The notes beneath the pieces are model-generated. The model was not told where the DNA came from. It ran no database searches and saw only the letters and a list, made by a program, of their open reading frames with translations. A program made the position numbers and the translations under genes. A stretch of DNA of 64,000 nt from an uncultured Rhodobacterales bacterium (lineage in GTDB: Bacteria > Pseudomonadota > Alphaproteobacteria > Rhodobacterales > Rhodobacteraceae): positions 618-64,617 of the forward strand of contig CAYRKW010000003.1 of assembly GCA_964425135.1 (NCBI GenBank), given 5' to 3'. Positions within the stretch are counted from its first letter, which is position 1, and the number at the start of each line of letters is the position of its first letter. This document shows positions 24,088 to 54,821 of the stretch, in pieces.

Positions 24088-24287
24088 CAACGCCGCCTCC
24101 ATTTGCCACTAAAAAGTGAGGGCAAAGACCCTCAAGAATATGTGGTGACAAAGATCACGAGCGTGGCATGATGTGGCGGTCCGGGCAGTGCTTACCCACC
24201 GTCTGAGCCAAGAAAATCAGTGAAGCGAGAGCTGTCAATTCATCCCATCGATGAAATGCGCAGGTCCGATACCACAGGGAGAAAACT

Positions 24288-25232
24288 ATGAAATTGTTTG
24301 ATAAAAAAGCGATTGCAGCCACAGTTGCCTTGTCCATGGCAACAGCCTCCGGCGCGGCTTTCGCTCAAGATTCGGCCAAGCCCATTGTTATTCCGACACA
24401 CAACTGGTCCAGCCAGGTCGTGATGGCCTATGTCATCGGCGGCATTTTTGAGAGCATGGGCAACAACGTCGAATATGTCCCCGCCGACACCCAAGGCGTC
24501 TACGAGGCGATCCGCAACGACGACGTGACCATCTCCCATGAAGTTTGGCAGTCCACGTTCGGCGCGTCCTTCTACAACGCCATGGAAAAAGGCGGCGTGA
24601 TCGATGCTGGTAACCACGCCGCGACGACCTTGGAAGAAATGGGCGTTCCGGGCTATGTGATCGAGCAGAATCTCTGCCCCGGTCTGCCAAATTGGGAAGC
24701 GCTCAAAGACTGCCCGGAGGTTTTCGCCACGGCCGATTCTGACGGCAAGGGCCGCTGGCTCGAAGGACCGCAAAGCTGGCACGGCGATCTGATGCCCGAC
24801 CGCATCAAGGCGCTGGGTCTTGAAGATCTCTACACCGTGAAATTCGCCGGTGGCGCTGACGCGCTTTGGGCCGAACTTGATTCTGCCAAGAAAGAAGGCC
24901 GCGGGATCATCACCTTCAACTGGACGCCAAACTTCACAGACGCGGACGGCTTCGTCTTCATCGAATTCCCCGAATATTACGATGGCTGCCGGATCGAGGA
25001 CGGTGGTGACGGAAAATGTGGTTCGCCCAAAGGCTGGCTGAAAAAAGCGGCGAATTACAAATTCCCCAAAACACACCCGCTTGCCTATAAAGCCTACACT
25101 AAAATCTCGTTCACCACGACGCAGATCGGTCAAATGGCCGCCCTCGTTGACATCGACAAGATGAGCCATCAGGACGCTGCGACCAAATGGCTGGCCGATA
25201 ACGAAGACGTTTGGAAGCCTTTCACTCAGTAA
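24288..25232 (+). CDS. tmoX: Glycine-betaine-type periplasmic substrate-binding protein, probable TMAO-binding TmoX
   Basis: 314 aa with signal peptide and an OpuAC-like fold. It is the first gene of an SBP-ATPase-fused permease-tdm operon, matching the tmoXWV-tdm arrangement reported in Roseobacters. Confidence 0.75.
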   Translation: MKLFDKKAIAATVALSMATASGAAFAQDSAKPIVIPTHNWSSQVVMAYVIGGIFESMGNNVEYVPADTQGVYEAIRNDDVTISHEVWQSTFGASFYNAMEKGGVIDAGNHAATTLEEMGVPGYVIEQNLCPGLPNWEALKDCPEVFATADSDGKGRWLEGPQSWHGDLMPDRIKALGLEDLYTVKFAGGADALWAELDSAKKEGRGIITFNWTPNFTDADGFVFIEFPEYYDGCRIEDGGDGKCGSPKGWLKKAANYKFPKTHPLAYKAYTKISFTTTQIGQMAALVDIDKMSHQDAATKWLADNEDVWKPFTQ

Positions 25233-25249
25233 CATCGAGCAAGCAATAG

Positions 25250-31046: not shown

Positions 31047-31117
31047 CTTCTTTGGTTCAAAAATATCCCGCTGCGCGCGCAAGCGCAAAACAAAGACGCG
31101 CGCCGCGCCAGCGGCGC
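31047..31117 (-). repeat. Dispersed element placed just after a stop codon, copy A (immediately downstream of the tmm stop)
   Basis: It shares the invariant blocks CTTCTTTGGTTC and CCCGCTGCGCGCGCAAGCGCA with copies at 62140-62211 and 42979-43055. Its hairpin is GCGCCGC-GCCA-GCGGCGC. Confidence 0.7.
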
Positions 31118-31132
31118 ACCGCAAGACCAAAC

Positions 31133-32467
31133 TCAGGTCTGCAAATAACTCTCCAAACTGTCATCCAGCGCATCCTTCCAGGCCGTATGATGCGCCGGCG
31201 CTTTGGTGCCAGTCATGGGTGAGACGTACCCGTGATTGCGAAACTCCATGATCCCTTTTTTCTTGTGCTTCTTCCACTCATAAAACGCCTGATTGGCCGC
31301 TTCGATGTCAAAGGAGGGATAATCCGTCTCGTCAATCAGCTCTTTGGTGTAAGCCCCCTGATAGGCAATGCAGGCATAGTCATCCTCAAGCGCTGCCTCC
31401 GCTGCCTGCCGCGCCGCCACATCTGCCTCGCGTGACTTCAAATCAGGCACATCAATGCGCCCCATGATGATATCGCGCACGTACCAGGCTTGGGCATCGA
31501 ACATGTTGAACGTGTACCATTGATCCTGCATGCCCAGATAGAAAAGCTCAGGATTGCCGTTCCAAACCACGCCTTTGTAAAGATCGTCCGACGCCAGAAC
31601 ATTCGGCGTCTTGAGCCGCAACTCATCGGGCAAAAACGGGAAGTGATGCTTGTAGCCGGTGCACAGAACAATCGCATCAACTTCATGGGATGATCCATCG
31701 ATGAAATGCGCAACCTTGCCCTCCATGCGATCAAGGCCAGACACTTCCGTCCAATTGTCCGGCCACGCATATCCGGTCCCACCTGAACGGCTCGATTGCA
31801 CTATGGATTTGACGCCGTATTTCCAAAGCTGCGATCCGATGTCCTCCGCCGAATAAGACGTCCCCATGATCATCACGCGTTGCCCTGCAAACTCACGCGC
31901 ATCACGGAAATCATGGGCGTGCAGAATGCGACCATTAAAGCGCTCAAAGCCGGGATATTCGGGCACATTTGGCACCGAAAAATGCCCCGTCGCCACCACC
32001 ACATTGTCAAAAACCTCACGGGCTTCTGTATCATTGATCTCATCGCGCACGGTTACGCTAAATCTGCCATCCTCAAAGCGCACATCGCGGACAATATGAT
32101 CGAATTTGATCCAGTCGCGAATGCCCGCCTTCTCCACGCGCCCCTTAATATAATCGAATAAAACCGCGCGCGGCGGGTAGGAGGCAATGGGCTTTCCGAA
32201 ATGCTCTTCAAAGGTGTAATCGGCGAACTCCAGACCCTCTTTGGGCCCGTTTGACCACAAATAGCGATACATCGATCCATGGCACTGATTGCCATGCTCA
32301 TCCACGCCGGTGCGCCAAGTGTAATTCCACAAACCGCCCCAATCCGACTGCTTCTCATAGCAGACAATTTCCGGAATATCCGCACCTTTTGCCTTGGCTG
32401 ATTGAAAGGCCCGAAGCTGCGCCAGACCCGATGGTCCTGCACCAATGATGGCGATCCGTTTTCCCAT
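31133..32467 (-). CDS. tmm: Trimethylamine monooxygenase (bacterial flavin-containing monooxygenase)
   Basis: Start at [14 protein letters not shown] (RBS GAGGGAG). FMO motif [11 protein letters not shown] (FxGxxxHxxxF), second dinucleotide motif GTSYSA, 444 aa. Confidence 0.85.
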
Positions 32468-32469
32468 TT

Positions 32470-32760
32470 TCAAACTCCCTCGACGATTGTTTGGACTGAG
32501 GTTGATGCTGACATGCGCACTTTCTTTGCGCCAGCATATTCCTTTGAATGATACCACGCCTGCGCGGCGTCATAGGACGGGAAGCGGATGATCACATTCC
32601 GCTCTCCGGGAGGGACACCTTCATAGCTTTGCGATGTGCCTCCGCGTACCAGAAACTCACCCCCGAATTGATCAAGGATCGGCTGGACCTGCGCGACATA
32701 GGTTCTGTAGATTTCAGGGTCGGTGACCGTGATCTGCGCGATGACATACCCGAAGGCCAT
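32470..32760 (-). CDS. DUF1330 domain protein
   Basis: 96 aa, [22 protein letters not shown]...[16 protein letters not shown], a typical DUF1330 alpha+beta barrel. There is an ATGA overlap upstream, and its stop is 2 nt before the tmm ATG. Confidence 0.75.
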
Positions 32761-33356
32761 CAGAGCCCCAAGGGGGAGGGAACCGCGCTACTCGCGTCCC
32801 AGTCCGGCTCAAATCCCAAAATGGTCGTATCGGCTGTAAGTGACGGATTAAACAGCGCATTATGCCAATAGGTTGACTGATAAAGCGGATTTTTCTCAGT
32901 CAGTTTCCACACTTTGCAATCAAGCGTGAACTCCTGATTATAGGCACTGAAGTAGAGCGTCACCCGATCCGCTTGCCGGATGGCCTGCGCGCCTTTGCTC
33001 TTGGGCGGAAAGGTCGCGGTGAGCGTGTCAGAAAACTCGCGCGCCTTTTGGTAATGGGTCGATGAGAAAAATTGGATCGCCTTGTCACGCCGCTGCGCCG
33101 GATCATTGGTGCGCTTGACCATATGCTGCATCTCGGGCGTAACCGAATAGGCGGGCAGCTTGTTAATGAGCGTGATGATATGGCCCATCGGCTCATCCGC
33201 GCCCTTAAGCGTGAGGGCCGGCATGATGCTGTCGTCAGGGCGGCCGTCAAACTCGCGCATTGCCATTTGCCGCACACGGCACTGCCATTTCAAAAACGCA
33301 TCGCGCAGCGGGTGTTGTTGCGGGGCCTGCCCCAAAATCTGAGCAACGGCGCTCAT
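32760..33356 (-). CDS. Hypothetical protein (orf198), no recognisable motif
   Basis: 198-aa ORF with ATGA overlaps at both ends, so it is translationally coupled within the operon. Confidence 0.6.
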   Translation of the reverse strand: MSAVAQILGQAPQQHPLRDAFLKWQCRVRQMAMREFDGRPDDSIMPALTLKGADEPMGHIITLINKLPAYSVTPEMQHMVKRTNDPAQRRDKAIQFFSSTHYQKAREFSDTLTATFPPKSKGAQAIRQADRVTLYFSAYNQEFTLDCKVWKLTEKNPLYQSTYWHNALFNPSLTADTTILGFEPDWDASSAVPSPLGL

Positions 33357-34201
33357 GCGACATCCTTTTTCGCTGGAGGCGTCAGATCAAAGGTAACATC
33401 ATGTTGCAGCGACGGAATACGGCCCCGCGCCTTGGCAACCTCGTCCAGATCAATCGTCGCCTGAACCACGCCTCGAAGCGCGCCGCCATCGGCCACAACG
33501 CGGCCCCATGGATCAACGATGAGCGAATGGCCGTAGCTTTCGCCGCCGCCCTCGACCGGACCGATTGCACAGGGCGAGATGACAAACGCACCGTTCTCAA
33601 TTGCGCGCGCACGGTTGAGCACATGCCAATGCGCCTCACCGGTTTTCTTGGTGAAGGCAGCGGGCACTGCAAGGATTTCCGCGCCATCCTGCGCCAGTTC
33701 CCGATAAAGCTGCGCAAACCGCAAATCATAGCAAATCGTATGCCCAATTTTCGCAAAGGGCGTCTCGATCAGCGTCGTCGCATCGCCGGGGATCACCCGC
33801 GCGCTTTCGCGGTAGACTTCGGTTTCCGAAAGTTGAATATCGAACAGGTGCAGTTTGTCATAACGGCTTCGGATCTCCCCGTCAGGGCCAATCATAAAGC
33901 CACGATTGTAAAACTTTCCGTCCCGCCCTGTGATCGCAATCGAGCCGATCATGATCCACAAGGATTTGTCGCGCGCATAATCCCGAATTCCGTTCAGGAA
34001 CGGATGATCGCTCTCGCGCGCGTGGGGCGGGGCGAAGAGCGCGCCATCGGTGCGCAATCCGCCGCAGTATTCTGGCAGCGCCAACATTTGCGCGCCTGCA
34101 CCCCGCGCAGCTTCGGCCAATGACAAGGCTTCATTCAGCGCTGTGCCAAAGTCTGGTTTGGGACGGGTTTGCAGGCAGGCAATGTTGAACGGGCGGGACA
34201 T
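33353..34201 (-). CDS. Carbon-nitrogen hydrolase (nitrilase superfamily; omega-amidase/Nit-like)
   Basis: 282 aa with the E-K-C triad contexts LALPEY, YDKLHLFD and GHTICYDLRF. Confidence 0.85.
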   Translation of the reverse strand: MSRPFNIACLQTRPKPDFGTALNEALSLAEAARGAGAQMLALPEYCGGLRTDGALFAPPHARESDHPFLNGIRDYARDKSLWIMIGSIAITGRDGKFYNRGFMIGPDGEIRSRYDKLHLFDIQLSETEVYRESARVIPGDATTLIETPFAKIGHTICYDLRFAQLYRELAQDGAEILAVPAAFTKKTGEAHWHVLNRARAIENGAFVISPCAIGPVEGGGESYGHSLIVDPWGRVVADGGALRGVVQATIDLDEVAKARGRIPSLQHDVTFDLTPPAKKDVA

Positions 34202-34614
34202 CAGAATTTCATGTAAGCCTTGCGCAAGCTGACCAGAGGGTGACGGTCCGACATCTGGAATTTGATCAGCAATTCGCGCGCAATCATGTCGCGATCCTGC
34301 TGATTATCCGGCAGTTTGATACTGTCCGGCACGCGCACCCAGCCGTTGATATTGCGATCAAACACCGCAGGCATGCCGTCCTCGTAGCCCATATGAACGT
34401 CTTCGAGCCAGTTCAGATCGTCCCAGCCCATCACTTCCATATATTCGGTCAAAAACGGCGTGATCCGCGCGTAGTCGGGGACGAGGTTAACGTCGTATCG
34501 ATAGCCGATATGCTGGCCGATTTCCTTTTCACGCTCGCTCTCGAGCCCGTCTTTATCTTTCAAAAACTGGTCGACATCCTTGATCTCGGAGCCGCGATAT
34601 TGTGTTCCAGCCAT
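34201..34614 (-). CDS. Hypothetical acidic protein (orf137), no recognisable motif
   Basis: 137-aa ORF with a strong RBS (GAGGAGA 6 nt upstream) and an ATGA overlap with the downstream hydrolase gene. Confidence 0.6.
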   Translation of the reverse strand: MAGTQYRGSEIKDVDQFLKDKDGLESEREKEIGQHIGYRYDVNLVPDYARITPFLTEYMEVMGWDDLNWLEDVHMGYEDGMPAVFDRNINGWVRVPDSIKLPDNQQDRDMIARELLIKFQMSDRHPLVSLRKAYMKF

Positions 34615-34639
34615 GTGTTGTCTCCTCGTGAGGGAAGAG

Positions 34640-34661
34640 GCCCCGGATCCGGGTCCGGGGC
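34640..34661 (-). repeat. Intercistronic GC hairpin GCCCCGGA-N6-TCCGGGGC (mgsC/orf137 gap)
   Basis: Read directly. 8-bp perfect stem. Confidence 0.6.
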
Positions 34662-34671
34662 GGGTTGTTGC

Positions 34672-36036
34672 TTAAAGGTGATGGTAGTCTTCAACGCCAA
34701 CCGTGTGGTTGGTGCCCGCAAGCGGAACGCCTGCCATGGCGGATGCTTCCATCGTGAGCGCTGCCAGATCTTCCGGCTCAAGGCTGTGCAGATTGGTCTT
34801 ACCACAGGCGCGGGCAAAGAGCTGCGCTTCGATGGTTAGCGTGTGCAGGAAGTTGTAGACCCGCTCGGCGGCTTCATCGGGATCAAGACGCTCGCGCAGT
34901 TTTGGGTCTTGCGTGGCCACGCCGACCGGACAACGGCCTGTGTGACAGTGATAGCAATAGCCTGGCTCTGCGCCAATTTCCTCAGGGTAGTTCGCCTCCG
35001 GGATATCCTTATTGCAATTGAGCGCCATCATCACCGAGTGACCCAGAGCAATCGCATCCGCGCCCAAAGCAATCGCCTTGGCCACATCCGCACCGTTACG
35101 CACACCGCCCGCGTAGATCAGGCTGATCTCGCCGCGCTTGCCCAGATCGTCGATGGCCTTGCGGGCCTGACGGATCGCAGCAATGCCCGGAACGCCGGTA
35201 TCTTCGGTGGCAAGGTGCGGACCAGCGCCGGTGCCGCCTTCCATACCATCAATATATATGCTGTCCGGGTTACATTTGACCGCCATGCGCACGTCATCAT
35301 AGACCCGCGCCGCGCCCAGTTTGAGCTGGATCGGAATCTGGCCGTTGGTCACTTCGCGGATTTCCTCGATCTTCAGCGCCAGATCGTCCGGTCCCAGCCA
35401 ATCCGGGTGACGGGCAGGGGAGCGTTGGTCGATACCAGCAGGCAGGGAGCGCATCTCGGCAACCTGATCGGTGACTTTTTGACCCATCAAGTGACCGCCA
35501 AGGCCAACTTTGCAGCCCTGGCCGATGAAGAATTCGCATCCGTCTGCAAGAACAAGGTGGTTGGGGTTAAAGCCGTAGCGCGACTGAATGCACTGGTAGA
35601 ACCATTTCGAGCTATAGCGCCGCTCGTCCGGGATCATCCCGCCTTCGCCTGAGCAGGTCGCAGTACCCGCCATGGTCGCACCGCGCGCCAGCGCCGTTTT
35701 GGCTTCATAGGAAAGCGCGCCGAAGCTCATGCCCGTCACATAGACCGGAATGTCCAGATCAAGCGGACGTCCCGCATTTGGCCCGATGATCGTGCGGGTT
35801 TCACATTTCTCCCGATATCCCTCGATGACAAAGCGGGTCAGGGTGCCCGGCAGAAATGTCAGATCATCCCAATGCGGGATTTTCTTGAACAGCGAAAAGC
35901 CCCGCATCCGATACCGGCCCAGCTCGGCCTTGATATGGATGTCGTCCATGACGCGCGGCGGAAAGACAAAGCTCTCTCCAAGCCGGTTAACATCACGGGG
36001 CAGGGCGGGTTTGCGTGGCATGTCTCCGTCGGCCAT
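34672..36036 (-). CDS. mgsC: N-methylglutamate synthase subunit C (FMN-binding glutamate-synthase domain-2 family)
   Basis: Start placed at MADGDMPRK (RBS AAAGGAAA). FMN/TIM-barrel motif ISLIYAGGVRNGADVAKAIALGADAIALG. It is linked to mgsA, mgsB and gmaS. Confidence 0.85.
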   Translation of the reverse strand: MADGDMPRKPALPRDVNRLGESFVFPPRVMDDIHIKAELGRYRMRGFSLFKKIPHWDDLTFLPGTLTRFVIEGYREKCETRTIIGPNAGRPLDLDIPVYVTGMSFGALSYEAKTALARGATMAGTATCSGEGGMIPDERRYSSKWFYQCIQSRYGFNPNHLVLADGCEFFIGQGCKVGLGGHLMGQKVTDQVAEMRSLPAGIDQRSPARHPDWLGPDDLALKIEEIREVTNGQIPIQLKLGAARVYDDVRMAVKCNPDSIYIDGMEGGTGAGPHLATEDTGVPGIAAIRQARKAIDDLGKRGEISLIYAGGVRNGADVAKAIALGADAIALGHSVMMALNCNKDIPEANYPEEIGAEPGYCYHCHTGRCPVGVATQDPKLRERLDPDEAAERVYNFLHTLTIEAQLFARACGKTNLHSLEPEDLAALTMEASAMAGVPLAGTNHTVGVEDYHHL

Positions 36037-36085
36037 TTGTATTTCCTTTCGGTGCGTACCCATCAGGCACGAGAATTCTGGAGGA

Positions 36086-36124: not shown

Positions 36125-36994
36125 TTACAAGATCAGCTTCTTCTCGTTTGGCTCGAGATTGTCGTAGTTCCAAAGCTGCTTGCCTGCGACGATCTTGGTG
36201 AAGTGATCCACGCCCTTGTCGGGCATCATGCCGTATTGGGTCAGCTTGCGCGTGAGCCACGCCTTGTCGAGATCGGTGAGTTCGGCCTCGACAGCATCCA
36301 CACCGCAAGAGGCAATATCACCGCCGATGTAGATGGTGCCGTCATACATACTATCGCCAAGGTTTTTGCCTGCATTGCCGCAGACCACCATCCGGCCTCG
36401 CTGCATCATAAAGCCCGACAGCGCGCCGGTGTCGCCACCCACGATGATCGTGCCGCCCTTCATATCGATGCCTGTGCGCGAGCCGACAGAGCCGCGACAC
36501 ACCAGATCACCGCCGCGGATCGCCGCACCAAAGGTGGAGCCTGCGTTCTTTTCGATCATCACTGTGCCGGACATCATGTTCTCTCCACAAGACCAGCCAA
36601 CGCGGCCATTGATGCGCACATTCGGCCCGTCGATCAGACCAACGCCGAAGTATCCGGTTGATCCTTCGATGATCAGGTTGAGCTTTGAGAGGATCCCCAC
36701 GCCCAGCGAGTGCATGCCGCGTGGGTTCTGGATGACAATCGTGCCGTATCCCTCAGCCATCAACTCGCGGATCGCGCTGTTGATTTGGGTCGTTGTTTTG
36801 CCATCCGCGTCAATCTCGGTGCGCTTGTTGAAATCAACATCCGGCGCCCATGGGTAGGTGAAGCGCTCGGACGCATCCTCATCAAACTCGATGTAGAGCG
36901 AGCGACCGGTAAGCTGTTCGGTGGTCATGCCCAGAGCAGCCACCCGCTCCTCCTGGGTCATCTGCTTAAGTTCGGCGTCAGATACGGCTGCCAT
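36125..36994 (-). CDS. mgsB: N-methylglutamate synthase subunit B (GXGXG-motif, glutamate-synthase domain-3-like)
   Basis: 289 aa with repeated GxGxG beta-helix motifs (GSTGYFGVG, GSVGSRTGI, GGDTGALSG, GNAGKNLG). Confidence 0.85.
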   Translation of the reverse strand: MAAVSDAELKQMTQEERVAALGMTTEQLTGRSLYIEFDEDASERFTYPWAPDVDFNKRTEIDADGKTTTQINSAIRELMAEGYGTIVIQNPRGMHSLGVGILSKLNLIIEGSTGYFGVGLIDGPNVRINGRVGWSCGENMMSGTVMIEKNAGSTFGAAIRGGDLVCRGSVGSRTGIDMKGGTIIVGGDTGALSGFMMQRGRMVVCGNAGKNLGDSMYDGTIYIGGDIASCGVDAVEAELTDLDKAWLTRKLTQYGMMPDKGVDHFTKIVAGKQLWNYDNLEPNEKKLIL

Positions 36995-38050: not shown

Positions 38051-38194
38051 TCAGTCGGCAAACGGTGGGCTTGATCCGCCACCATCACCTGCCTCGCGGC
38101 ACTGTTTTTCCGAATGGATGCATTTATTGTTGTTGCAGTATCCCTCAGCACTGATGCCAGCGCCGCATTTAGGGCATGTGCTTACGGTAGGCAT
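38051..38194 (-). CDS. Candidate 47-aa Cys-rich (zinc-ribbon-like) micro-protein between gmaS and mgsA
   Basis: The ATG overlaps the gmaS stop codon (TAATG). Translation is MPTVSTCPKCGAGISAEGYCNNNKCIHSEKQCREAGDGGGSSPPFAD (CxxC-x9-CxxxxC-x6-C). The stop lies just before the mgsA RBS. Caveat: third-position G+C is only about 52% by hand count, lower than I expect for the flanking genes, whose GC3 I did not count. Confidence 0.45.
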   Translation of the reverse strand: MPTVSTCPKCGAGISAEGYCNNNKCIHSEKQCREAGDGGGSSPPFAD

Positions 38195-39672
38195 TACGGC
38201 AGACACTCCATGTAAGTTTCGTTGTCCCAATCGGTCACAGTGGACATGAAGCGGGCATATTCGTCGTGCTTGTACTCGTGGAAGAGACGGTACATCTCGC
38301 CGGGCATACCGCGACGAACAACATCGCTGTTCTCCAGATGCGCAAGCGCTTCGCCCAGAGACATCGGCAGCTTTTTGACATCCTTGCCGTCTTTGATGGC
38401 GTCGTAGATGTTGCGCTCTTCGGGCTCGCCCGGATCAAGCTGGTTGTCGATACCGTCATCCATGGCTGCCAAAAGCGTGGTGCCCATCAGGTACGGGTTC
38501 ACCATACTATCGACCGAGCGGTACTCGAAACGACCCGGTGCCGAGACCCGCAAGCCTGTTGTCCGGTTCTGGAAGCCCCAATCGGCAAAGACCGGCGCCC
38601 AGAAACCCGTATCCCACAGGCGACGGTAAGAGTTGACCGTCGAACAGCCCACAGCCGTCAAAGCCTGCAGGTGTGTCACCACACCGCCGATGGCCTCAAG
38701 CCCTTCTTTGCCGGGCATTTGCGGATCATCATCGTCGGGCATGAAGGTGTTCTCGCCGCCCTTCACATACATGTAGTTTTCGGCCATGCCGGGCAGATCT
38801 TTTGGATCGTTTCCGCATTTGACCAATTCATCCTCACCGCCGCGCCAGAGCGACATGTTGTGGTGACAGCCAGAGGCTGAAACGCCCATGAAGGGTTTGG
38901 TCATGAAACAGGCGAAAATGCCGTTTTCACGGGCAACCTGCGCACAGATTTGACGATACGTTGTCAGGCGGTCCGCGTTGCGCAGCACATCGTCGAACAT
39001 CCAGTTCAGCTCCAACTGACCCGGCGCATCCTCGTGATCGCCCTGGATCATATCGAGACCCATTTTGCGGGCATAGCGGATCACCTGCATGGAGACAGGG
39101 CGCAGGCTCTCGAACTGGTCGATGTGATAGCAATATGGCTTCGAATACCCGTCCTTGGGCTTGCCGTTCTCATCAAACTTGAGCCACATCATCTCCGGCT
39201 CGGTTCCGATCCGCAGGCTGCGTCCGTGCTTTTTCTTGAAGTCATCATGCATGCGGCGCAGATTGCCCCGGCAATCGGCAGTCAGATAGCCGCCAGGATC
39301 AACCTTTTCCTCGCGATTGCGGAAAAGCGTGCAGTAAAACCGTCCAATGGTGGGGGCCCATGGCAATTGCATGAAGGTTTCTGGCTCAGGAATACCGACC
39401 AGCTCGGCAGCTTCGGGACCGTAGCCCAGATAATTGCCTGCGCGGTCTGTGAACAGGTTCACCGTTGCGCCGTAAACGAGCTGGAAGCCCTTTTTGGCAA
39501 CGCTTTCCCAGTGGTCGGACGGGATGCCTTTGCCCATGATCTTGCCGGTCACAGAGACGAATTGCAGATAGAGATATTCGATCCCCATCGCATCAATCAT
39601 CTTTCGGACTTCTTTGATTTTCTCGTCGCGACCCTTCGCGTCTACAAACCGTTCAAGATCAGTCTCAGCCAC
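38194..39672 (-). CDS. gmaS: Gamma-glutamylmethylamide synthetase (glutamine-synthetase-like)
   Basis: 492-aa GS catalytic-domain protein (KPFMGVSASGCHHNMSLW) with a GTG start and RBS AGGGAGAG. It lies immediately upstream of mgsABC, as in described NMG-pathway clusters. Confidence 0.8.
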   Translation of the reverse strand: MAETDLERFVDAKGRDEKIKEVRKMIDAMGIEYLYLQFVSVTGKIMGKGIPSDHWESVAKKGFQLVYGATVNLFTDRAGNYLGYGPEAAELVGIPEPETFMQLPWAPTIGRFYCTLFRNREEKVDPGGYLTADCRGNLRRMHDDFKKKHGRSLRIGTEPEMMWLKFDENGKPKDGYSKPYCYHIDQFESLRPVSMQVIRYARKMGLDMIQGDHEDAPGQLELNWMFDDVLRNADRLTTYRQICAQVARENGIFACFMTKPFMGVSASGCHHNMSLWRGGEDELVKCGNDPKDLPGMAENYMYVKGGENTFMPDDDDPQMPGKEGLEAIGGVVTHLQALTAVGCSTVNSYRRLWDTGFWAPVFADWGFQNRTTGLRVSAPGRFEYRSVDSMVNPYLMGTTLLAAMDDGIDNQLDPGEPEERNIYDAIKDGKDVKKLPMSLGEALAHLENSDVVRRGMPGEMYRLFHEYKHDEYARFMSTVTDWDNETYMECLP

Positions 39673-39739: not shown

Positions 39740-41083
39740 TCAGCTCCACGGATAGGGGCTGTTGGAAACCGGATGCAGATTGCCCTTTTCGAACCGGTCA
39801 AAGCGGAACGGCTCAAGCAATGATTGCGTTTCTCCCATCACCTCGTCGGCAGTCAAATGGCCAACGCCGATCATTTTCCAGCCGTGGTTGCTGTCGGCAA
39901 TCACATGCACGTTCTCGCGAAACTTGTCGAAAACCGGGAAACTGTCGGCCGTAAAGCACCCGATACCGCCCGAGGCTTCGCGGTGATATTTGGGCATCAT
40001 ACCCTCATAACGCTTCTGGCAATGCGCCAAGGCGCTCACCCACATATGCGCAAACTCCGGACCGGAGACGAACTCAGGGCTCGACGGACCATAGGGATCA
40101 ATCGCGACCTTATCGACGGGCGTCTCAACCTTGTAAGGGCTCGCTCCGCCCTGAATGCCGCCGAAATGATGATCGGGCTTATAGTAAATGCCCCACATCT
40201 CTTCGGTGATGATCGAGCCGTCCACGTCAGAGATCAGCGGCGCGTCCGTGTCCACATGGATCACCGGCGCCATAGTGCCATCATCGGCATAGCCAAGCTC
40301 TGGATCAATGTTCAGCACACCTTCCTCAAGCTGCCAATAGCGCCACATATCGACATTCTCATGCACCTCGCCGCTCAGATCCTTGACGGTGATCTGTTTG
40401 GGCATATCGAGCATATCCCAGAAGTCGCGGACCCAAGGGCCAGCGCCAATGATCAGCTGGCCGCAGGCAATCGTGCCTTTGTCAGTCTCAACCGCTGAAA
40501 CTGCGCCGGTACCATTTGACGAGACCAGCTCCTTGACCGTCACGCCCGTGATGATGCGCACGCCCAACTCCTCGACTTTGCTGGCAAGCCCGTACATGGA
40601 TTTGGTGTTGTTCGAGTATCCGCCGCGCTTTTCGTGCAAGACCGACGTGATATTCTGCGCCTGCCAGTCGCCAAAATAGCCGCGCATATAAGACGTGCTC
40701 TCGTTAGCGCCCTCGATGAATGTGCTTTCATAGCCGATGGCCTGCTGTTGCTCATAGATCGAGCGGACGTCCTCGCGCATGCTTTCAGAGCTGATCTGCA
40801 TGTAGCCAACCGGATGATAGCTGAGCACCTCTGCGTCGCTTTCCCAAACATCGACCGAATGCGCCATCAACTCGCGCATCGCTGGCTGGAAGTAGTTGTT
40901 GCGCACAACGCCGCAGGCAATCCCGCTGGCACCCGCTGCAATGCCGGATTTTTCGAGGACAACGATTTTACCTTCGACCGCTTTCCCTTTGGCTGCCAGC
41001 CGCTCGGCCAGACGCCATGCAGTTGATAGACCATGGATGCCAGCCCCGATGATCAGGTATTCGGCGTGCTCTGGAAATGCCAT
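39740..41083 (-). CDS. FAD-dependent oxidoreductase, DAO/sarcosine-oxidase-beta-like
   Basis: 447 aa with N-terminal dinucleotide fold YLIIGAGIHGLSTAWRLAE. It is the first gene of the minus-strand methylamine operon. Confidence 0.85.
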   Translation of the reverse strand: MAFPEHAEYLIIGAGIHGLSTAWRLAERLAAKGKAVEGKIVVLEKSGIAAGASGIACGVVRNNYFQPAMRELMAHSVDVWESDAEVLSYHPVGYMQISSESMREDVRSIYEQQQAIGYESTFIEGANESTSYMRGYFGDWQAQNITSVLHEKRGGYSNNTKSMYGLASKVEELGVRIITGVTVKELVSSNGTGAVSAVETDKGTIACGQLIIGAGPWVRDFWDMLDMPKQITVKDLSGEVHENVDMWRYWQLEEGVLNIDPELGYADDGTMAPVIHVDTDAPLISDVDGSIITEEMWGIYYKPDHHFGGIQGGASPYKVETPVDKVAIDPYGPSSPEFVSGPEFAHMWVSALAHCQKRYEGMMPKYHREASGGIGCFTADSFPVFDKFRENVHVIADSNHGWKMIGVGHLTADEVMGETQSLLEPFRFDRFEKGNLHPVSNSPYPWS

Positions 41084-41252: not shown

Positions 41253-41936
41253 ATGAACCAGCCCATCAAGATTGGTGCCGCGGAAGTCGCGTCACTATTG
41301 CGCCGCGATATCCTCGATGGGGTGCGCAGCTTTAAGGACCGTCTTCCGTCAGAACGCGACCTTGCCGCGACCCATGGGGTTGCGCGCGGGACGGTGCGCG
41401 AAGCGCTCAATCGCCTGGCGGATGACGGGCTGATCGAGATCAAACGTGGCTCTGGCGCTTATGTCAGTTATCAGGACGAGGTTGCGGCCAATTCAGTCGT
41501 CGCGAATGCTCGCCCGCTGGAGCTGATCGACGCACGTTTCGCGCTGGAGCCGCATATTTGCCGTCTGGCGGTCCTACACGCCCGTCCCTCCGACCTCGAT
41601 CACGCCGAGGCGATCCTGTCCAAGATGGAACAGGATGTGGAAAATCACACGCAATTTGCTGAAAACGACAAAGCGTTTCACAGTCTTCTGGCCGAGATCA
41701 CCGGCAACAGCCTGCTGATCTGGATCATGGCGCAAATCAACACAGTACGCGGCGAGGATCAATGGGCGCAGATGCGTCAGATCACGCTCGATCCGCAGAT
41801 GATCGCGACCTACAACCTGCAGCACCGGCAAATTCTCAATGCGATCAAAACCCGCGAGGCGGAGCGGGCTGCGGTTCTGATGAAAGAGCATCTGGAATCT
41901 GCGCGCACGTCCCTTACACGCGCGATTGCCACCTAA
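41253..41936 (+). CDS. GntR family (FadR/FCD subfamily) transcriptional regulator
   Basis: N-terminal wHTH LPSERDLAATHGVARGTVREALNRLADDGLIEIKRGSGAYV plus a helical FCD-type C-terminal domain. It is divergent from the methylamine operon. Confidence 0.85.
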   Translation: MNQPIKIGAAEVASLLRRDILDGVRSFKDRLPSERDLAATHGVARGTVREALNRLADDGLIEIKRGSGAYVSYQDEVAANSVVANARPLELIDARFALEPHICRLAVLHARPSDLDHAEAILSKMEQDVENHTQFAENDKAFHSLLAEITGNSLLIWIMAQINTVRGEDQWAQMRQITLDPQMIATYNLQHRQILNAIKTREAERAAVLMKEHLESARTSLTRAIAT

Positions 41937-42000: not shown

Positions 42001-42969
42001 ATGTCTGACCCGTTTTTCCAACCCGTCTCGGGCTTTGATCTGCCCCGCTTTGCAGGCGTTCCGAGCTTTATGCGCCTTCCTGTTGTCTCAATCGATGCGC
42101 CGATTGCTCGGGATGTGCAACTTGGGCTGATCGGTGTGCCTTGGGATGCGGGCACGACCAATCGCCCCGGCCCAAGGCATGGTCCGCGCCAGATGCGCGA
42201 CTATTCGACGATGATCCGGCGGATCAATCCAGCCACAGGCGTTGATCCGTTTGATCTGGTAAACTGCGCGGATCTGGGCGATGTCGGGCCGAACCCGGCG
42301 GATTTGCAAGACAGTATGGACCGGATTACGGCGTTTTATCGCGCAGTGCGCGAGGCGGGAATTGTGCCGATGTCGGTTGGTGGGGATCATTTGTGCTCGC
42401 TGCCGATCCTGCGTGGCCTTGCGGACAACGGACCGCTGGCGATGATCCATTTCGATGCGCATACGGATTTGTTCGAGAGTTATTTCGGTGGGTTCAAATA
42501 CACGCACGGCACGCCGTTCCGCCGCGCCATCGAAGAAGGCCTGCTTGATCCCAAAAAGGTCGTGCAGATCGGTATTCGGGGCACCATGTATGATGGCGAG
42601 GATATCGAGTTCGGCCGTTCGGTCGGGGTGCGGATCATTATGATCGAGGAGGTGTTCGAGCGTGGGATTGCCGATGTCATGGCCGAAGCGCGGCAGATCG
42701 TTGGCGACAGACCGACCTATTGCTCTTATGACATCGACTTTATCGATCCTGCTTTTGCGCCCGGAACGGGGACGCCGGAAATCGGCGGGCCGAACAGCTT
42801 TCAGGCCCAGCAGGTTGTGCGTGCCCTGGAAGGCGTCAATCTGATTGGTGCGGATTTGGTAGAAGTGTCACCGCCGTTTGATCAAAGTGGCGGGACGGCA
42901 TGGCTTGGCATATCGATTGTGTTTGAGTTGATGTGCGTTCTTGCCCAAGCCATCGAGCGGCGCGGGTAA
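42001..42969 (+). CDS. Agmatinase/ureohydrolase (arginase superfamily) protein
   Basis: Mn-binding motifs GGDHLCSLP, HFDAHTDL and SYDIDFIDPAFAPGTGTPEIGG. Confidence 0.85.
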   Translation: MSDPFFQPVSGFDLPRFAGVPSFMRLPVVSIDAPIARDVQLGLIGVPWDAGTTNRPGPRHGPRQMRDYSTMIRRINPATGVDPFDLVNCADLGDVGPNPADLQDSMDRITAFYRAVREAGIVPMSVGGDHLCSLPILRGLADNGPLAMIHFDAHTDLFESYFGGFKYTHGTPFRRAIEEGLLDPKKVVQIGIRGTMYDGEDIEFGRSVGVRIIMIEEVFERGIADVMAEARQIVGDRPTYCSYDIDFIDPAFAPGTGTPEIGGPNSFQAQQVVRALEGVNLIGADLVEVSPPFDQSGGTAWLGISIVFELMCVLAQAIERRG

Positions 42970-43056: not shown

Positions 43057-44619
43057 TTAATACCCTAATGCGCAGCCGTCTTTGCGCGGGTCTGATGCGC
43101 CGATCAGCACATCGCCGTCGATCATGATGGCCTGTGCGCCGCCTATAGCGGTGTCGGGGGTGCTGACCGCGTGGCCGCGATTGATCAGTTCTGCGCGTAC
43201 CTCAACTGCGTAGCCGCGCTCGACTTTCATATCGCCTGCGTCCCAGAAGCAGCGGGGGGCATCAATCGCGGTTTGGATGTCCATGCCGAAATCGGCGATG
43301 TTCGAGAGGAAGCGCGCGTGGCCGTTGGGTTGGTACTGGCCACCCATCACGCCAAATGGCATCACCATATCGCTCCGCTTCAACAGGCCGGGGATGATTG
43401 TGTGCATGGGGCGCTTGCCCCCCTTTGCCTCATTGGGATGGTCTTTGATGAGGTTGAAGCCTGCGCCGCGGTTCTGGAACAATATTCCGAATTTATCTGT
43501 CGCGATGCGTGATCCGAAGCTGTGAAAGATCGAGTAGATCAGCGAGACGGCCGTGCGGTCTTTGTCGACAACGGTGATATAGATCGTGTCCTTATGGACG
43601 TTGTCGGATGCCTTTGCAGCTGAGGGCATTGCCCGTTCGGGATCGATCAGCGATGCGAGCGATTTGGCGGTGTCCGTGCTCAACAAGTGATCCAGGCGCG
43701 GCGCGCCATCGGCGACGAACCTGTCGCGTGCATCATACGCGAGTTTTGCGGCCTCCGCTTCGATATGGGCGCGATCGGCGCCTGAGGGGTCCATGGAGGC
43801 AATGTCGAACTGCGACAGGATGTTTGCCATCATGATCGCCGTTGCGCCGTGACCGTTTGGCGGCAGTTCGATCAGGTCATATCCTTTGTAGCTGCCCTGG
43901 ATTGGGGTGATATACTCGGATCGGCACTGCGCAAAATCATCGAGCGTGTGGACCCCGCCGAGCGCTGCGAGCGCCGAATGCATATCTTCGGCGATCTCGC
44001 CTGTGTAAAATCCGTTGCGTCCTTCGGCTGCGATCTTGCGCAAGACATCCGCTTGGCTTGCGGCCCGGAAAATCTGGCCTGCGCGGGCGGGTTTTCCGTC
44101 CATCAGGTATAGCTTTGCTGCGGTGCCCGACATATCCGCGCAATGCGACAAGTCGTCCGCAACGCGCGGGGCAACGGGCACGCCCTCTTCGGCGTAATGG
44201 ATCGTCGGAGCCAGAACATGGTCGAGGCCGAGCTTGCCGTGATCTGCGCTGAGCGTGCAAAACGCGTCAATCGCGCCGGGAATGGTGACTGATGCCGGAT
44301 TGTCGTAAAGTGGCATCTGCGTGTGCCCGCTCGCGCGCAAGGCCTCCGCATCAAGGGCAGCAGGTGCGCGGCCCGAGCCGTTAAGACCAACCACAGCTTG
44401 GCCGGGCCTATCGATCAGCGCAAAGCAATCACCGCCGATCCCGGTCATTTGCGGCTCGCAAATCCCCAGCAGCACCGCACCTGCAATTGCTGCATCGACC
44501 GCGTTGCCGCCCGCGGCGAGAATATCGACTGCCGCTTTGGCGGCCAATGGATGCGAGGTCGCACACATGCCGTTCTTGGCATATACCAGCGAGCGTCCGG
44601 GGAGATGAAAATTGCGCAT
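43057..44619 (-). CDS. Gamma-glutamyltransferase family protein (no obvious signal peptide)
   Basis: About 520 aa from MRNFHLPGRS. GGT-family N-terminus ATSHPLAAKAAVDILAAGGNAVDAAIA. Confidence 0.85.
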   Translation of the reverse strand: MRNFHLPGRSLVYAKNGMCATSHPLAAKAAVDILAAGGNAVDAAIAGAVLLGICEPQMTGIGGDCFALIDRPGQAVVGLNGSGRAPAALDAEALRASGHTQMPLYDNPASVTIPGAIDAFCTLSADHGKLGLDHVLAPTIHYAEEGVPVAPRVADDLSHCADMSGTAAKLYLMDGKPARAGQIFRAASQADVLRKIAAEGRNGFYTGEIAEDMHSALAALGGVHTLDDFAQCRSEYITPIQGSYKGYDLIELPPNGHGATAIMMANILSQFDIASMDPSGADRAHIEAEAAKLAYDARDRFVADGAPRLDHLLSTDTAKSLASLIDPERAMPSAAKASDNVHKDTIYITVVDKDRTAVSLIYSIFHSFGSRIATDKFGILFQNRGAGFNLIKDHPNEAKGGKRPMHTIIPGLLKRSDMVMPFGVMGGQYQPNGHARFLSNIADFGMDIQTAIDAPRCFWDAGDMKVERGYAVEVRAELINRGHAVSTPDTAIGGAQAIMIDGDVLIGASDPRKDGCALGY

Positions 44620-44675
44620 ATTGCGCCCCTTTGGTTGTGTCAGGCGCACTCTAGCGTGGGGGGTGAAAAATTAAA

Positions 44676-52724: not shown

Positions 52725-54821
52725 TTAGTCACGCGCCGACTTAAATCTCAGGCCCACTTCGCTCGCCATCAGATCAAGCACCTGTTGGTCAAACCAGTAC
52801 CCCGTATGCCCATAGGGATAGATCGGGATGTTCTTTGGGAATTCCTCACTGTCCGATGGATCGAGCTTGCGCGATTTGATGTAGGTTCCGACGAAATCAT
52901 CGACGCGAAAGATGTTGACCCAGTTGCGCAACAGCGCTGGGTCGACATTGTCGATATTGAACTGCGTCGGGAAGTAATAGTGGTAAAGATGCGAGAAAGG
53001 CGAGCCCATTGTGATCAGCGTGTACGGCACTTTCCCAAGGCTCTGGAGCACATCTTTGCGCGACAATTGCGAGACGGAAATCATCGTGCCTTGCGAGTGA
53101 GAGACGATCAGAACCTCATCGGGTTTGAAGGCCTGCATCTTGGTATCAAGCACAATCCGAAAGCGTGTGTTAATCCGATGGCGCAACGTGAAGCTGGTCG
53201 CGCGGTCGGGATCTTCCATCATATCCTTGAAATTCTGGAGTGGCGATTTCTTGGGAACGCTATCTACAAAGTAGTTGATCACGTCCTTACCCACACCCAG
53301 ACCAACGCCAAGATGCTTTTGTAAGAACGGCCAGGCCAGCACGAATATCGTGCCCAAACCACCCGCAGCCACAGCCGCTATCTCATTAAAGCGGCCCTTC
53401 CAGAACGCCAGACTGTCCGGGTAGAAACAACTGAACGCATCCGGTGTCGGGTTTGGTTCGGCGCCGCACCCGCGATTAAGCGCGATCAAAACAGCGGTGC
53501 CCGCCATCGCCAAAAGGCAAATGGACATCACCCAACCCATCACCGAGTTGAGCAACAGGCGCGGCACCTCTTTGCCGCGTTTGGGCCAGACGGCAGGTTG
53601 TCCTTCTTGGCCGATCTCAGGATTGTCCGCCCGGGCCTGCGCTGTGATATGCGCCTCCGGGTAGGCCTTGATCCATTTGGCCCGGCGCATCGCTTCGACA
53701 ACGCCTGTGACAATCACCAGCGCCAGCGAGGCCATCGCCATGGTGAGCAAGCCCAACGCGCTCTTGAGATGCGCATCGAGCAACGTCTTCACATCACGAT
53801 TGGTCTCTGCCCAGGCACCAAGCGCGATCCAGAATATGCACGCCACGATCAGCCAGAACACCACCATCGCCGCAATGGTCTGCGGATAGACCATACGCGC
53901 CTTATTCTTCGGATTTGGCACCCCATTGAAAACCCAGAACAGCACCAGCACCGCCGCCATTAGCAGCATGACCAGCCAAGTGAGCTGCAAGACCGCCACC
54001 ACAATCGAGATGTAGAAATCGAAGATATCCGCCGATGCGATCAAACCGGTCATATGTCCAATGAGGCCACATGCCAGCAGCACAAACATCGCTACCCCGA
54101 TAAAGAACATCCAGTCTGCGCATTGCCTGAAAAGCCGGTTGGTCGGCCTCTTTAAATAGCCCAACCCGGTCGCAAATGCGCTGATCAGTGCAAAAACAGC
54201 ATGCGGAAAATACGGGTTATCCGTCTTTACCCAGTCATACGGGAGAAATTGGAAAAATACATAAGTCAGCAGCACACCAATCGCGAGCAGCAGGTTGAGC
54301 ACTGCATTTGGTCCATGCGCGAGCCAGACGAATATATCTGCGACGCGAATGCGCCAGTCTTTCTTGCCCATAGTCTGCGAAAACTGTGCGGCTGTGGGCA
54401 GCGATTGCGCATCTTCAGCCGCCGCATCAAGGTCAACCTCTTCGGCCCAATGTTCTTCGTTTTCGTGAACCTCCCGCACATTGGCGCGGATCAGATATCC
54501 CAACCCCAGAATGGTCTTGATAAATTCGAGTATCGTCGAAAATGCACCGGTTGGCCCTTGCGAAAGATCGGCCCAATAGACCTCCGAAAATAGCGTCTCA
54601 TCACCGCTTCCGTTTTCGCGGACGTGGCGTGTGTGGCAGGGAAAGGTATCGAGCGCGCGCGGGTTCTCGTTTTGGTGGTGTTCGCGCAGATACACCAGCT
54701 CGCTTTCGGTGCTGCCATCTACATTATTGGTTGCAGCACCAACAAAACTGTCAAGTGTGTCGCCAGCCGCTTGCTCGCCGACCCCGTGAACAACGAGCAC
54801 AAGTTTCTTTTTGTTGGCCAT
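52725..54821 (-). CDS. Membrane-embedded alpha/beta hydrolase: the HG oxyanion motif and the Ser-Asp-His region are separated by about 8-9 predicted TM helices
   Basis: 698 aa. VLVVHGVGEQ is at aa 8-17 and EVYWADL at 80-86, with hydrophobic helices from about aa 160-500. Nucleophile elbow VSHSQG is at 573-578, followed by MGSPFSHL, VDDFVG (about 640) and GHTGYW (about 671). Confidence 0.7.
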   Translation of the reverse strand: MANKKKLVLVVHGVGEQAAGDTLDSFVGAATNNVDGSTESELVYLREHHQNENPRALDTFPCHTRHVRENGSGDETLFSEVYWADLSQGPTGAFSTILEFIKTILGLGYLIRANVREVHENEEHWAEEVDLDAAAEDAQSLPTAAQFSQTMGKKDWRIRVADIFVWLAHGPNAVLNLLLAIGVLLTYVFFQFLPYDWVKTDNPYFPHAVFALISAFATGLGYLKRPTNRLFRQCADWMFFIGVAMFVLLACGLIGHMTGLIASADIFDFYISIVVAVLQLTWLVMLLMAAVLVLFWVFNGVPNPKNKARMVYPQTIAAMVVFWLIVACIFWIALGAWAETNRDVKTLLDAHLKSALGLLTMAMASLALVIVTGVVEAMRRAKWIKAYPEAHITAQARADNPEIGQEGQPAVWPKRGKEVPRLLLNSVMGWVMSICLLAMAGTAVLIALNRGCGAEPNPTPDAFSCFYPDSLAFWKGRFNEIAAVAAGGLGTIFVLAWPFLQKHLGVGLGVGKDVINYFVDSVPKKSPLQNFKDMMEDPDRATSFTLRHRINTRFRIVLDTKMQAFKPDEVLIVSHSQGTMISVSQLSRKDVLQSLGKVPYTLITMGSPFSHLYHYYFPTQFNIDNVDPALLRNWVNIFRVDDFVGTYIKSRKLDPSDSEEFPKNIPIYPYGHTGYWFDQQVLDLMASEVGLRFKSARD

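Follow-up and report, generated by a model that had tools for sequence, protein, structure and literature searches.

The window analysed here is a stretch of 64,000 nucleotides (nt) from an uncultured Rhodobacterales bacterium (contig CAYRKW010000003.1 of assembly GCA_964425135.1), and all positions are counted from its first letter. Its minus strand carries a string of ten genes encoding, in order, a flavin adenine dinucleotide (FAD)-dependent oxidoreductase, a glutamine synthetase (GS)-like ligase, MgsA-, MgsB- and MgsC-like proteins related to N-methylglutamate (NMG) synthase, a protein of 137 amino acids (aa) (orf137), a carbon-nitrogen hydrolase of the amidase type, a protein of 198 aa (orf198), a DUF1330 protein and the trimethylamine monooxygenase Tmm. 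This study concerns the four genes from orf137 to the DUF1330 gene. Sequence comparison indicates that the string contains a glutamate-synthase-like/GS-like amine module with two new, uncharacterised and invariant partners, the products of orf137 and orf198. The features of the string, from its first gene to its end, are the following.

39740..41083, minus strand: FAD-dependent (DAO-family) oxidoreductase, 447 aa; PF01266; first gene of the string
38194..39672, minus strand: GS-like ligase, a GmaS paralogue and not an orthologue; PF00120; 468-492 aa
37094..38032, minus strand: MgsA-like class II (N-terminal nucleophile, Ntn) glutamine amidotransferase; PF13522 and PF13537; N-terminal Cys, start MCGIAG
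36125..36994, minus strand: MgsB-like GXGXG-domain protein; PF01493; about 60 aa longer than classical MgsB in the alignment
34672..36063, minus strand: MgsC-like flavin mononucleotide (FMN)-binding glutamate-synthase-domain protein with a four-Cys motif; PF01645, 3e-89
34615..34671, minus strand: spacer between mgsC and orf137 with two hairpins, the second pairing with the ribosome-binding site (RBS) of orf137
34201..34614, minus strand: orf137, 137 aa; acidic, no Cys; directly downstream of the MgsC-like gene
33353..34201, minus strand: Nit1/Nit2-branch carbon-nitrogen hydrolase (omega-amidase-like), 282 aa; optional member of the module
32760..33356, minus strand: orf198, 198 aa; basic; predicted PNPOx-like split barrel (flavin-binding type); invariant member of the module
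32470..32760, minus strand: DUF1330 protein, 96 aa; translationally coupled to tmm
31133..32467, minus strand: tmm (trimethylamine monooxygenase); end gene of the string; NCBIfam NF058570 equivalog
31098..31119, minus strand: intrinsic-terminator-like hairpin after tmm; 9-bp stem with 8 GC pairs, plus a T-run

The four minus-strand open reading frames (ORFs) reported in a preliminary description of this DNA were all recovered at the same coordinates. That description had counted three ATGA junctions; all three are stop/start overlaps, but the 4-nt ATGA type occurs only between the hydrolase gene and orf198, and the genes overlap by 1 nt, as TGATG, at orf137/hydrolase and at orf198/DUF1330. The GAGGAGA RBS ascribed to orf137 was seen 7 nt ahead of its ATG, and tmm was seen to start, as had also been reported, at an ATG at 32467, 2 nt past the DUF1330 stop codon. 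The mechanical ORF list runs tmm up to a GTG at 32557 (31133-32557), overlapping the DUF1330 gene; the conserved N-terminus begins at the ATG at 32467.

From the FAD oxidoreductase gene to tmm, no same-strand terminator-like site with more than 6 stem pairs was found. The sole match between 41083 and 31133 has 6 pairs and lies inside mgsB (36429-36415), and terminator-like matches in the region were no commoner than in shuffled sequence. Since strong internal sites are lacking and the 9-pair, GC-rich hairpin occurs only after tmm, the four genes are placed inside a ten-gene string starting at 41083.

To define the distribution of these genes, one genome per GTDB species was scanned. A gene for orf137 was present in at least 591 species, and the best 80 loci were taken with flanks of 10 kb. 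The window proteins were mapped onto these loci by tblastn. The loci belong to Rhodobacterales, Hyphomicrobiales, SAR116, Rhodospirillaceae and the gammaproteobacterial Granulosicoccaceae. In all 80 species-representative loci the order was GS-like, MgsA-, MgsB- and MgsC-like, orf137, (amidase) and orf198, with or without tmm. The mgsC gene stood directly upstream of orf137 in all 73 loci that had enough upstream sequence; the GS-like gene (69 of 69) and orf198 (80 of 80) were likewise constant. The remaining genes were less constant: the hydrolase gene was found in 65 of 77 loci and tdm in 36 of 59; tmm occurred in 27 of 72 and the DUF1330 gene in 15 of 72, 12 of these with tmm and usually directly ahead of it; and 33 of 66 loci had the FAD oxidoreductase gene ahead of the GS-like gene. 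A GntR/FCD regulator gene was divergent upstream in 68 of 80 loci. AT-rich, SAR11-type marine contigs hold the FAD gene, the GS-like gene, the A, B and C genes and orf137, with a homologue of orf198 (35% identical) on the opposite strand.

The spacing is conserved as well. The median gap was 14 nt between mgsC and orf137 and 4 nt between orf137 and the hydrolase gene; a 4-nt overlap of the hydrolase gene with orf198 was found in 53 of 72 loci, and of the DUF1330 gene with tmm in 7 of 13. Identity at the three codon positions was 89/93/52% for orf137 and 64/72/41% for orf198, and, as third positions are far less identical than the first two, both proteins are under purifying selection. This applies to all four ORFs.

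These data divide the block into three parts: orf137 with orf198, an invariant core that goes with the GS-like/MgsABC-like operon; an amidase gene that is common but optional; and a DUF1330 gene that is usually found directly ahead of tmm. The proposal that the four genes form one block was therefore not sustained, given that orf137 and orf198 accompany the GS-like/MgsABC-like operon throughout while the hydrolase gene (65/77), the DUF1330 gene (15/72) and tmm (27/72) do not. The linkage to tmm and gmaS that had been anticipated from the window gave a divided outcome, being fixed with respect to the GS-like operon (80/80) and partial with respect to tmm. On the other hand, the view of the block as a co-oriented, tightly spaced and conserved companion of methylated-amine genes was borne out by the conserved spacing and by the lack of a strong internal terminator-like site. 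Being conserved across two proteobacterial classes, the linkage is far stronger than is visible from the window alone.

Four of the 80 scan loci, and four near-identical Roseovarius loci (L001-L004, about 11369-12985), have a gene for TmoP, the permease for trimethylamine N-oxide (TMAO), between the amidase gene and orf198. As a representative of the four scan loci, the inserted gene of L044 (9736-11358) is a TmoP equivalog, scoring 865 bits (cut-off 690). Its presence disrupts the usual ATGA coupling of amidase gene and orf198.

The genes flanking orf137 constitute, according to sequence comparison, a separate, paralogous system of marine type. Compared with the classical clusters of Thioclava, Aminobacter and Methylobacterium, the window proteins are 27-28% (GS-like ligase), 33% (MgsA), 35-40% (MgsB) and 50-51% (MgsC) identical. 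A tblastn search of plasmids with the window MgsC gave 254 records, all less than 60% identical, while among the 80 marine species identity was 86-95%. The domain architecture is the classical one, with a GS catalytic domain, a class II glutamine amidotransferase (GATase) domain, a GXGXG domain and the FMN domain of the Glu_synthase family. The classical order is mgsA-mgsB-mgsC-glnT(gmaS), beside soxBDAG-type mgd genes; here the ligase gene comes first, and orf137 and orf198 stand at the end. Neither orf137 nor orf198 was found in the classical clusters of these three genera or in betaproteobacterial glnT-glxBCD clusters. Among the labels first given to the surrounding genes, tmm, tdm and tmoXWV were borne out, whereas gmaS and mgsABC proved to be divergent paralogues of the classical genes.

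The GS-like ligase is 27-30% identical to classical GmaS/GlnT. It scored 182 bits against solved GmaS (7cql, 9qur) and 199 bits against archaeal GS, and remained under the cut-off of TIGR03105 (297 against 470). The validated GmaS of Ruegeria pomeroyi is 61% identical to the 430-aa RhGmaS (PMC7948447); as the window GS-like protein matches RhGmaS (7cql) no better than it matches generic GS, the Ruegeria pomeroyi enzyme is assigned to the classical type. The flap of the GS-like ligase, 'GFWAP', aligns with 'GYEAP' of GS and 'ATWAP' of classical GmaS, so that the flap Glu is replaced by Trp. Because this is the GmaS-type residue at the place of the GS flap Glu, the protein is probably an amine ligase and not a true glutamine synthetase. 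It keeps Asp50', unlike RhGmaS (PMC7948447).

When the MgsC-like protein is aligned with GltS, the Cys residues in 'LNC...CYHCHTGRCPVGVATQ' fall on the region of the 3Fe-4S ligands. This four-Cys motif was present in 84 of 84 window-type loci, and all four residues are replaced in the alphaproteobacterial classical MgsC of Thioclava, Aminobacter and Methylobacterium. MgsC homologues of the betaproteobacterial glnT-glxBCD type (L094 7959-9320 and L095 7956-9320) keep the motif. Since the betaproteobacterial proteins keep the four Cys and the alphaproteobacterial ones replace them, the 'classical' NMG synthases would be heterogeneous for a possible Fe-S cluster.

The protein encoded by orf137 is acidic (isoelectric point, pI, 4.8), lacks cysteine and ranks with the best conserved proteins of the locus. 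Its identity across the 80 loci, spanning Alpha- and Gammaproteobacteria, was 84-94%, against 86-95% for MgsC; 77 of 137 alignment columns are invariant, and the SAR11-type branch is about 70% identical overall and 77% over the conserved core. At 90% identity, its homologues form more than 8000 clusters. A HMMER scan of 1.84 billion cluster representatives gave only 308 matches, nearly all at least 65% identical or fragments, and detected no distant relatives. No match was obtained in Pfam at E ≤ 1 or in NCBIfam, and a profile search of the PDB gave a single chance-level match at 0.022, which was discarded as a sign of a distant family. The AlphaFold2 (AF2) model is weak, with a predicted local distance difference test (pLDDT) score of 62, falling below 50 in residues 28-46, which hold the invariant IGQHIGYRYDVN motif. 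The low score of these conserved residues is compatible with a segment that folds on a partner. Two representatives, P0306 and P0353, seemed to be mgsC-orf137 fusions but were by appearance frameshifted or chimeric gene calls and were not used.

The 57-nt spacer ahead of orf137 holds two adjacent hairpins. The first has an 8-bp CCCCGGAC/GUCCGGGG stem, and in the second CCUCUUC pairs with the GAGGAG of the orf137 RBS; the fold energy is -25.4 kcal/mol, with a z of only -1.96. The spacer hairpins may tune the translation of orf137.

The protein encoded by orf198 has a pI of 8.5 and is the only basic protein in the gene string; 1057 homologous clusters at 90% identity were found. The window copy had no match in Pfam at E ≤ 1 and none in NCBIfam, and a profile search against PDB sequences gave nothing. 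Its AF2 model is confident (pLDDT 92.9), and the top 50 Foldseek matches in the PDB were all PNPOx-like split barrels binding FMN, F420 or heme. The fold is therefore predicted to be a PNPOx-like split barrel, usually flavin-binding. On the SAR11-type contigs (L007-L009, 10420-12342) the homologue has 181 aa, is 35% identical and is convergent with orf137. A 194-aa "amino acid synthesis family protein" equally placed in an Aquabacterium cluster was compared as a possible counterpart of orf198 and is unrelated (hhalign probability 0.1). An identity of orf137 and orf198 with SoxD or SoxG was likewise rejected, with no Pfam match at E ≤ 1 and with classical SoxD and SoxG queries finding nothing at these genes. 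The earlier observation that no motif could be assigned to the two proteins agrees with the Pfam result, and the homology to housekeeping families looked for in Pfam, NCBIfam, HMMER, PDB profile and Foldseek searches was not found.

The hydrolase belongs by sequence to the Nit1/Nit2 branch of the nitrilase superfamily. It matches PF00795 (CN_hydrolase, 4e-53) over residues 7-259 of 282, and the E-K-C triad attributed to it was found as E44, K116 and C157 in the motifs LPEY, DKLHLF and ICYD. In a simple motif count, all of 68 homologues had the Glu motif and 65 had the Cys motif; the pattern used for Lys was too strict for a reliable count. The best PDB match was mouse Nit2 omega-amidase (2w1v, 1e-47, full length), followed by NitFhit and yeast Nit2/Nit3. 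The protein scored under all NCBIfam equivalog cut-offs: 184 against 500 for the deaminated glutathione amidase models, which were the best matches, 141 against 355, and 72 against 249 for PRK10438, which we take to be the Escherichia coli YafV type. Nit1/Nit2 enzymes hydrolyse 2-oxoglutaryl-amides formed by transamination of gamma-glutamyl compounds, and the Nit2 likeness fits the suggestion, made in the preliminary description, of a 2-oxoglutaramate-type intermediate. The DUF1330 protein matches PF07045 (2e-31, 108.9 bits against a gathering score of 23); its PDB relatives, 2fiu (1e-18) and 3lo3, are both uncharacterised.

Two further features flank the string.

41253..41936, plus strand: GntR/FCD regulator, divergent; PF00392 and PF07729
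24288..30838, plus strand: tmoXWV-tdm (TMAO uptake and demethylation), convergent; its 3' end faces the 3' end of tmm

Both tmm (784 bits, NCBIfam cut-off 675) and tdm (1166, cut-off 1100) are equivalogs. The tmoX gene (24288-25232, plus strand) encodes an OpuAC protein, and tmoW and tmoV encode ABC_tran and BPD_transp_1 components; at the tmoX position (24240-25235) the longest ORF is a minus-strand shadow ORF. The FAD oxidoreductase resembles SoxB, ThiO and L-amino-acid deaminase weakly and over its N-terminal half only, so it is at best distantly SoxB-like; it is 65% identical to the product of the gene at the same position on SAR11-type contigs. No SoxBDAG-type mgd genes were found in the 64-kb window, in agreement with the reported lack of mgdABCD there. 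Among the Pfam-scanned window ORFs there was no second GcvT-domain protein, as in DmmD, and no other dmm candidate, the search having included no Dmm reference.

Taking as classical mgdA the soxB-family gene of the Thioclava soxBDAG cluster, genes 71-78% identical to it border the module on its upstream side in at least 14 loci. One locus has soxB, soxD and soxA homologues downstream of the module, and a few loci hold a classical GmaS (57-63% identical); classical mgsABC genes were found in none of the loci. A Marinosulfonomonas contig has the order mgdA, TmaR-like regulator, class I amidotransferase, GntR, FAD gene, GS-like, A, B, C, orf137, amidase and orf198, followed by LysR, tmoXWV, tdm and classical gmaS.

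Ten recurrent neighbour families were annotated within 10 kb of the 80 loci. Among them, class I amidotransferase/Peptidase_C26 genes were seen in 29 loci, a TmaR/GbdR-like regulator in 13, and a PuuC-like aldehyde dehydrogenase and an ammonium transporter in 8 each; TmoP recurred as well. In the window, beyond the GntR regulator gene, lie an arginase-family gene (42001-42969, plus strand) and a gamma-glutamyltranspeptidase gene (43057-44649, minus strand), a place that in many other loci is taken by a class I amidotransferase/Peptidase_C26 gene. The products of these three kinds of genes may be alternative gamma-glutamyl-amide hydrolases. A gene of the MttB family (trimethylamine:corrinoid methyltransferase), with 288 bits against a cut-off of 525, lies about 6 kb downstream of the module in five loci (L023 15977-17530 and four more); a DapA-like gene (5 loci) and the gene for the PuuC-like aldehyde dehydrogenase (8) are found downstream too, in loci that may differ. 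Elsewhere in the window, a 698-aa ORF (52725-54821, minus strand) without a Pfam match at 1e-5 overlaps a shorter plus-strand ORF.

The cluster for trimethylamine (TMA) use of Ruegeria pomeroyi comprises 31 genes induced by TMA, dimethylamine (DMA) and monomethylamine (MMA) (PMC13390433); that it carries the module is not established. SAR11 bacteria lack dmmDABC, and an 'amine oxidase' induced there by nitrogen limitation has been mooted for DMA, on which it was not tried (PMC5520151, PMC3870248). Judging by gene position, this amine oxidase would correspond to the FAD enzyme. A literature search by Ruegeria pomeroyi and SAR11 locus tags, and for DUF1330 or omega-amidase with gamma-glutamylmethylamide and for dimethylglutamate, found no description of these genes.

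The reading that we favour, tentatively and at somewhat less than an even chance, is that orf137 and orf198 encode dedicated partners of the paralogous marine-type enzyme system and that the amidase salvages a 2-oxoglutaramate-type by-product. Both partners would serve the transfer of a gamma-glutamyl-activated methylated amine onto 2-oxoglutarate, giving an N-methylglutamate-type product. The orf137 protein could be a small subunit or adaptor binding the MgsC-like enzyme complex, because it is as conserved as MgsC, is always adjacent to it and is not predicted to fold alone in part of its most conserved stretch. The orf198 protein could be a small flavin-binding partner, providing redox input to, or maintenance of, the FMN/Fe-S MgsC-like subunit, or it might act on the gamma-glutamyl-amide intermediate. 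From the known action of Nit2/Nit1 enzymes on 2-oxoglutaryl-amides, the amidase would convert N-methyl-2-oxoglutaramate or 2-oxoglutaramate, the transaminated gamma-glutamyl-amide, into 2-oxoglutarate and amine, and the DUF1330 protein might assist Tmm in some way. This reading is supported by the context, with classical mgdA, the TmaR-like regulator, tmoXWV-tdm and tmm flanking the module.

Several observations weigh against it. The validated GmaS enzymes are of the classical family (PMC7948447), to which the GS-like ligase does not belong. The Foldseek search with the orf137 model gave no match, which, the model being weak, says little. For orf198, the best Foldseek match was marginal (E 5e-4, about 10% identity, template modelling (TM) score 0.47 when normalised to the query and 0.71 when normalised to the target length) and covered about half of the protein, and among 48 homologues Pfam matched DUF7267 weakly in 13 and Pyridox_oxase_2 in one, at 0.027. 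In addition, the orf198 homologue of SAR11-type contigs immediately follows, in the same orientation, a gene for classical-type GmaS (57% identical to Thioclava GmaS) and not mgsC, so that orf198 may relate to the gamma-glutamylmethylamide step instead of MgsC. The Fe-S motif as the reason for the presence of orf137 and orf198 is weakened by the glxD-type proteins of Burkholderia and Aquabacterium, which keep the four Cys without both genes. Finally, the amidase gene is missing from 12 of 77 loci and so is not essential to the core.

Other explanations were weighed against these same data. If orf137 and/or orf198 acted outside the catalytic machinery, they would be small proteins that regulate the GS-like ligase or the synthase, or else assembly or cofactor-insertion factors, an account that we regard as unlikely. 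Small inhibitory or activating proteins do exist for glutamine synthetases, and orf137 would suit such a role in being small and acidic, with a highly conserved and poorly predicted N-terminal segment, as would the apparent operon of orf198 with classical GmaS on SAR11-type contigs. Classical and betaproteobacterial enzymes also appear to work without such proteins. The mgsABC and gmaS genes used in Pseudomonas putida are presumably of classical origin. With these genes, production of NMG in that host has been reported (PMC6237917). However, regulators are rarely as conserved across classes as a catalytic subunit, as orf137 is (84-94%, MgsC 86-95%), the tight spacing and the overlaps suggest production in step with the enzymes, and the split-barrel fold predicted for orf198 is typical of cofactor-binding enzymes.

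A replacement step had been put forward in the preliminary description. In its widest form, the FAD oxidoreductase, the GS-like and MgsABC-like proteins, orf137, orf198 and the amidase would be a self-contained alternative route for methylated amines; in one version DMA would be gamma-glutamylated, moved to 2-oxoglutarate and demethylated by the FAD enzyme in organisms without dmmDABC. We hold this to be decidedly improbable. As a replacement of NMG dehydrogenase it is contradicted by the co-occurrence of mgd with the module, classical mgdA adjoining it in at least 14 loci, and orf137 and orf198 are unlike SoxD or SoxG. The route has no biochemical precedent, and the literature search gave no gamma-glutamyl-DMA or N,N-dimethylglutamate pathway; the FAD enzyme is encoded in only 33 of 66 loci, and many Roseovarius loci hold the module without tdm or tmm within 10 kb. 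What speaks for it is that, with no Dmm reference searched, no dmm candidate was seen among the Pfam-scanned window ORFs or the ten neighbour families of the 80 loci, that the module is often adjacent to tmoXWV-tdm, which yields DMA (36 of 59 loci have tdm), and that genomes can hold classical GmaS besides the GS-like ligase and the FAD enzyme besides classical mgdA, which would fit two ligations and two demethylations. The lack of dmmDABC in SAR11, together with the amine oxidase mooted there, by position apparently the counterpart of the FAD enzyme, points the same way (PMC5520151, PMC3870248).

That the four genes are passengers, which have no part in methylated-amine metabolism and only travel with the operon, is very improbable and nearly excluded. 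Two of them belong to no recognisable family, and the amidase and DUF1330 genes are patchy; against this stand the co-linearity in 80 of 80 species of two proteobacterial classes, the conserved overlaps, the very strong purifying selection and the retention of the genes on SAR11-type contigs. A more far-reaching reading would make the module, with its FAD oxidoreductase, GmaS-like ligase, Fe-S/FMN glutamate-synthase-like ABC enzyme, orf137, split-barrel orf198 and Nit2-like amidase, a so far undescribed set of enzymes by which abundant ocean bacteria use methylated-amine nitrogen, and orf137 and orf198 new obligatory subunits or electron-transfer partners; it would serve either a reductive assimilation of methylamine without free ammonia, resembling that by glutamine synthetase and glutamate synthase (GS-GOGAT), or the missing DMA route of bacteria without dmmDABC, such as SAR11. 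This reading is quite unlikely.

Methylated amines are a significant marine nitrogen source and an aerosol precursor. Their pathway has been treated as solved save for a dimethylamine "bottleneck" in SAR11 and others (PMC5520151). The present data add that the genes beside tmm and tdm in many marine genomes represent, judging from their divergence, a separate paralogous system and not the validated gmaS-mgsABC, and that this marine-type system always carries two proteins of unknown family, orf137 and orf198. BLAST surveys that count "gmaS" or "mgsABC" with loose cut-offs may mix both systems. If functions were assigned to orf137 and orf198, a gap in this globally abundant pathway would be closed, and it could become clear how bacteria without dmmDABC handle dimethylamine.

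Compared with known systems, the module shares its domain set with the classical NMG module (mgsABC-gmaS-mgdABCD) of Methylobacterium, Aminobacter and Thioclava, and both are associated with mgd and methylated-amine genes. It differs in an identity of 27-51%, in the ligase gene being first and not last, in longer proteins, in the four Cys kept in MgsC and in the addition of orf137 and orf198. With respect to GltS, the MgsA-, MgsB- and MgsC-like proteins match the amidotransferase, C-terminal GXGXG and FMN domains, and the Cys residues of the MgsC-like protein align with the 3Fe-4S ligands beside CPVGVATQ; a separate small redox partner would be the parallel here to the beta subunit or ferredoxin that donates electrons to GltS. 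Unlike GltS, however, the module consists of separate polypeptides without a central domain or a GltD homologue, with four Cys and a 17-residue insertion; orf137 is without Cys, and orf198 is unrelated to GltD.

The Nit2/Nit1 salvage enzymes (mouse Nit2, NitFhit, yeast Nit2/Nit3) are alike to the hydrolase over the full length and have the E-K-C triad in common with it, but the hydrolase scores under all equivalog cut-offs, and its gene lies within an amine-catabolic operon. In its predicted fold, orf198 resembles, with marginal statistics, PNPOx-like FMN split barrels (PDB 3db0, 2i02, 2re7 and Rv2074), from which it differs in an identity of about 10%, an extra N-terminal helix, helical insertions and only weak Pfam matches, to DUF7267. 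The Puu-type gamma-glutamylation of Escherichia coli, with a ligase, an FAD oxidase, an aldehyde dehydrogenase and a gamma-glutamyl hydrolase, lacks a glutamate-synthase-like ABC enzyme, and the GS-like ligase reaches 210 against a cut-off of 650 for gamma-glutamylputrescine synthetase. Nevertheless, a GS-like gene and a DAO-family FAD gene stand here in one string, and its surroundings repeatedly include genes for class I amidotransferase/Peptidase_C26 proteins (29 loci) and for PuuC-like aldehyde dehydrogenases (8).

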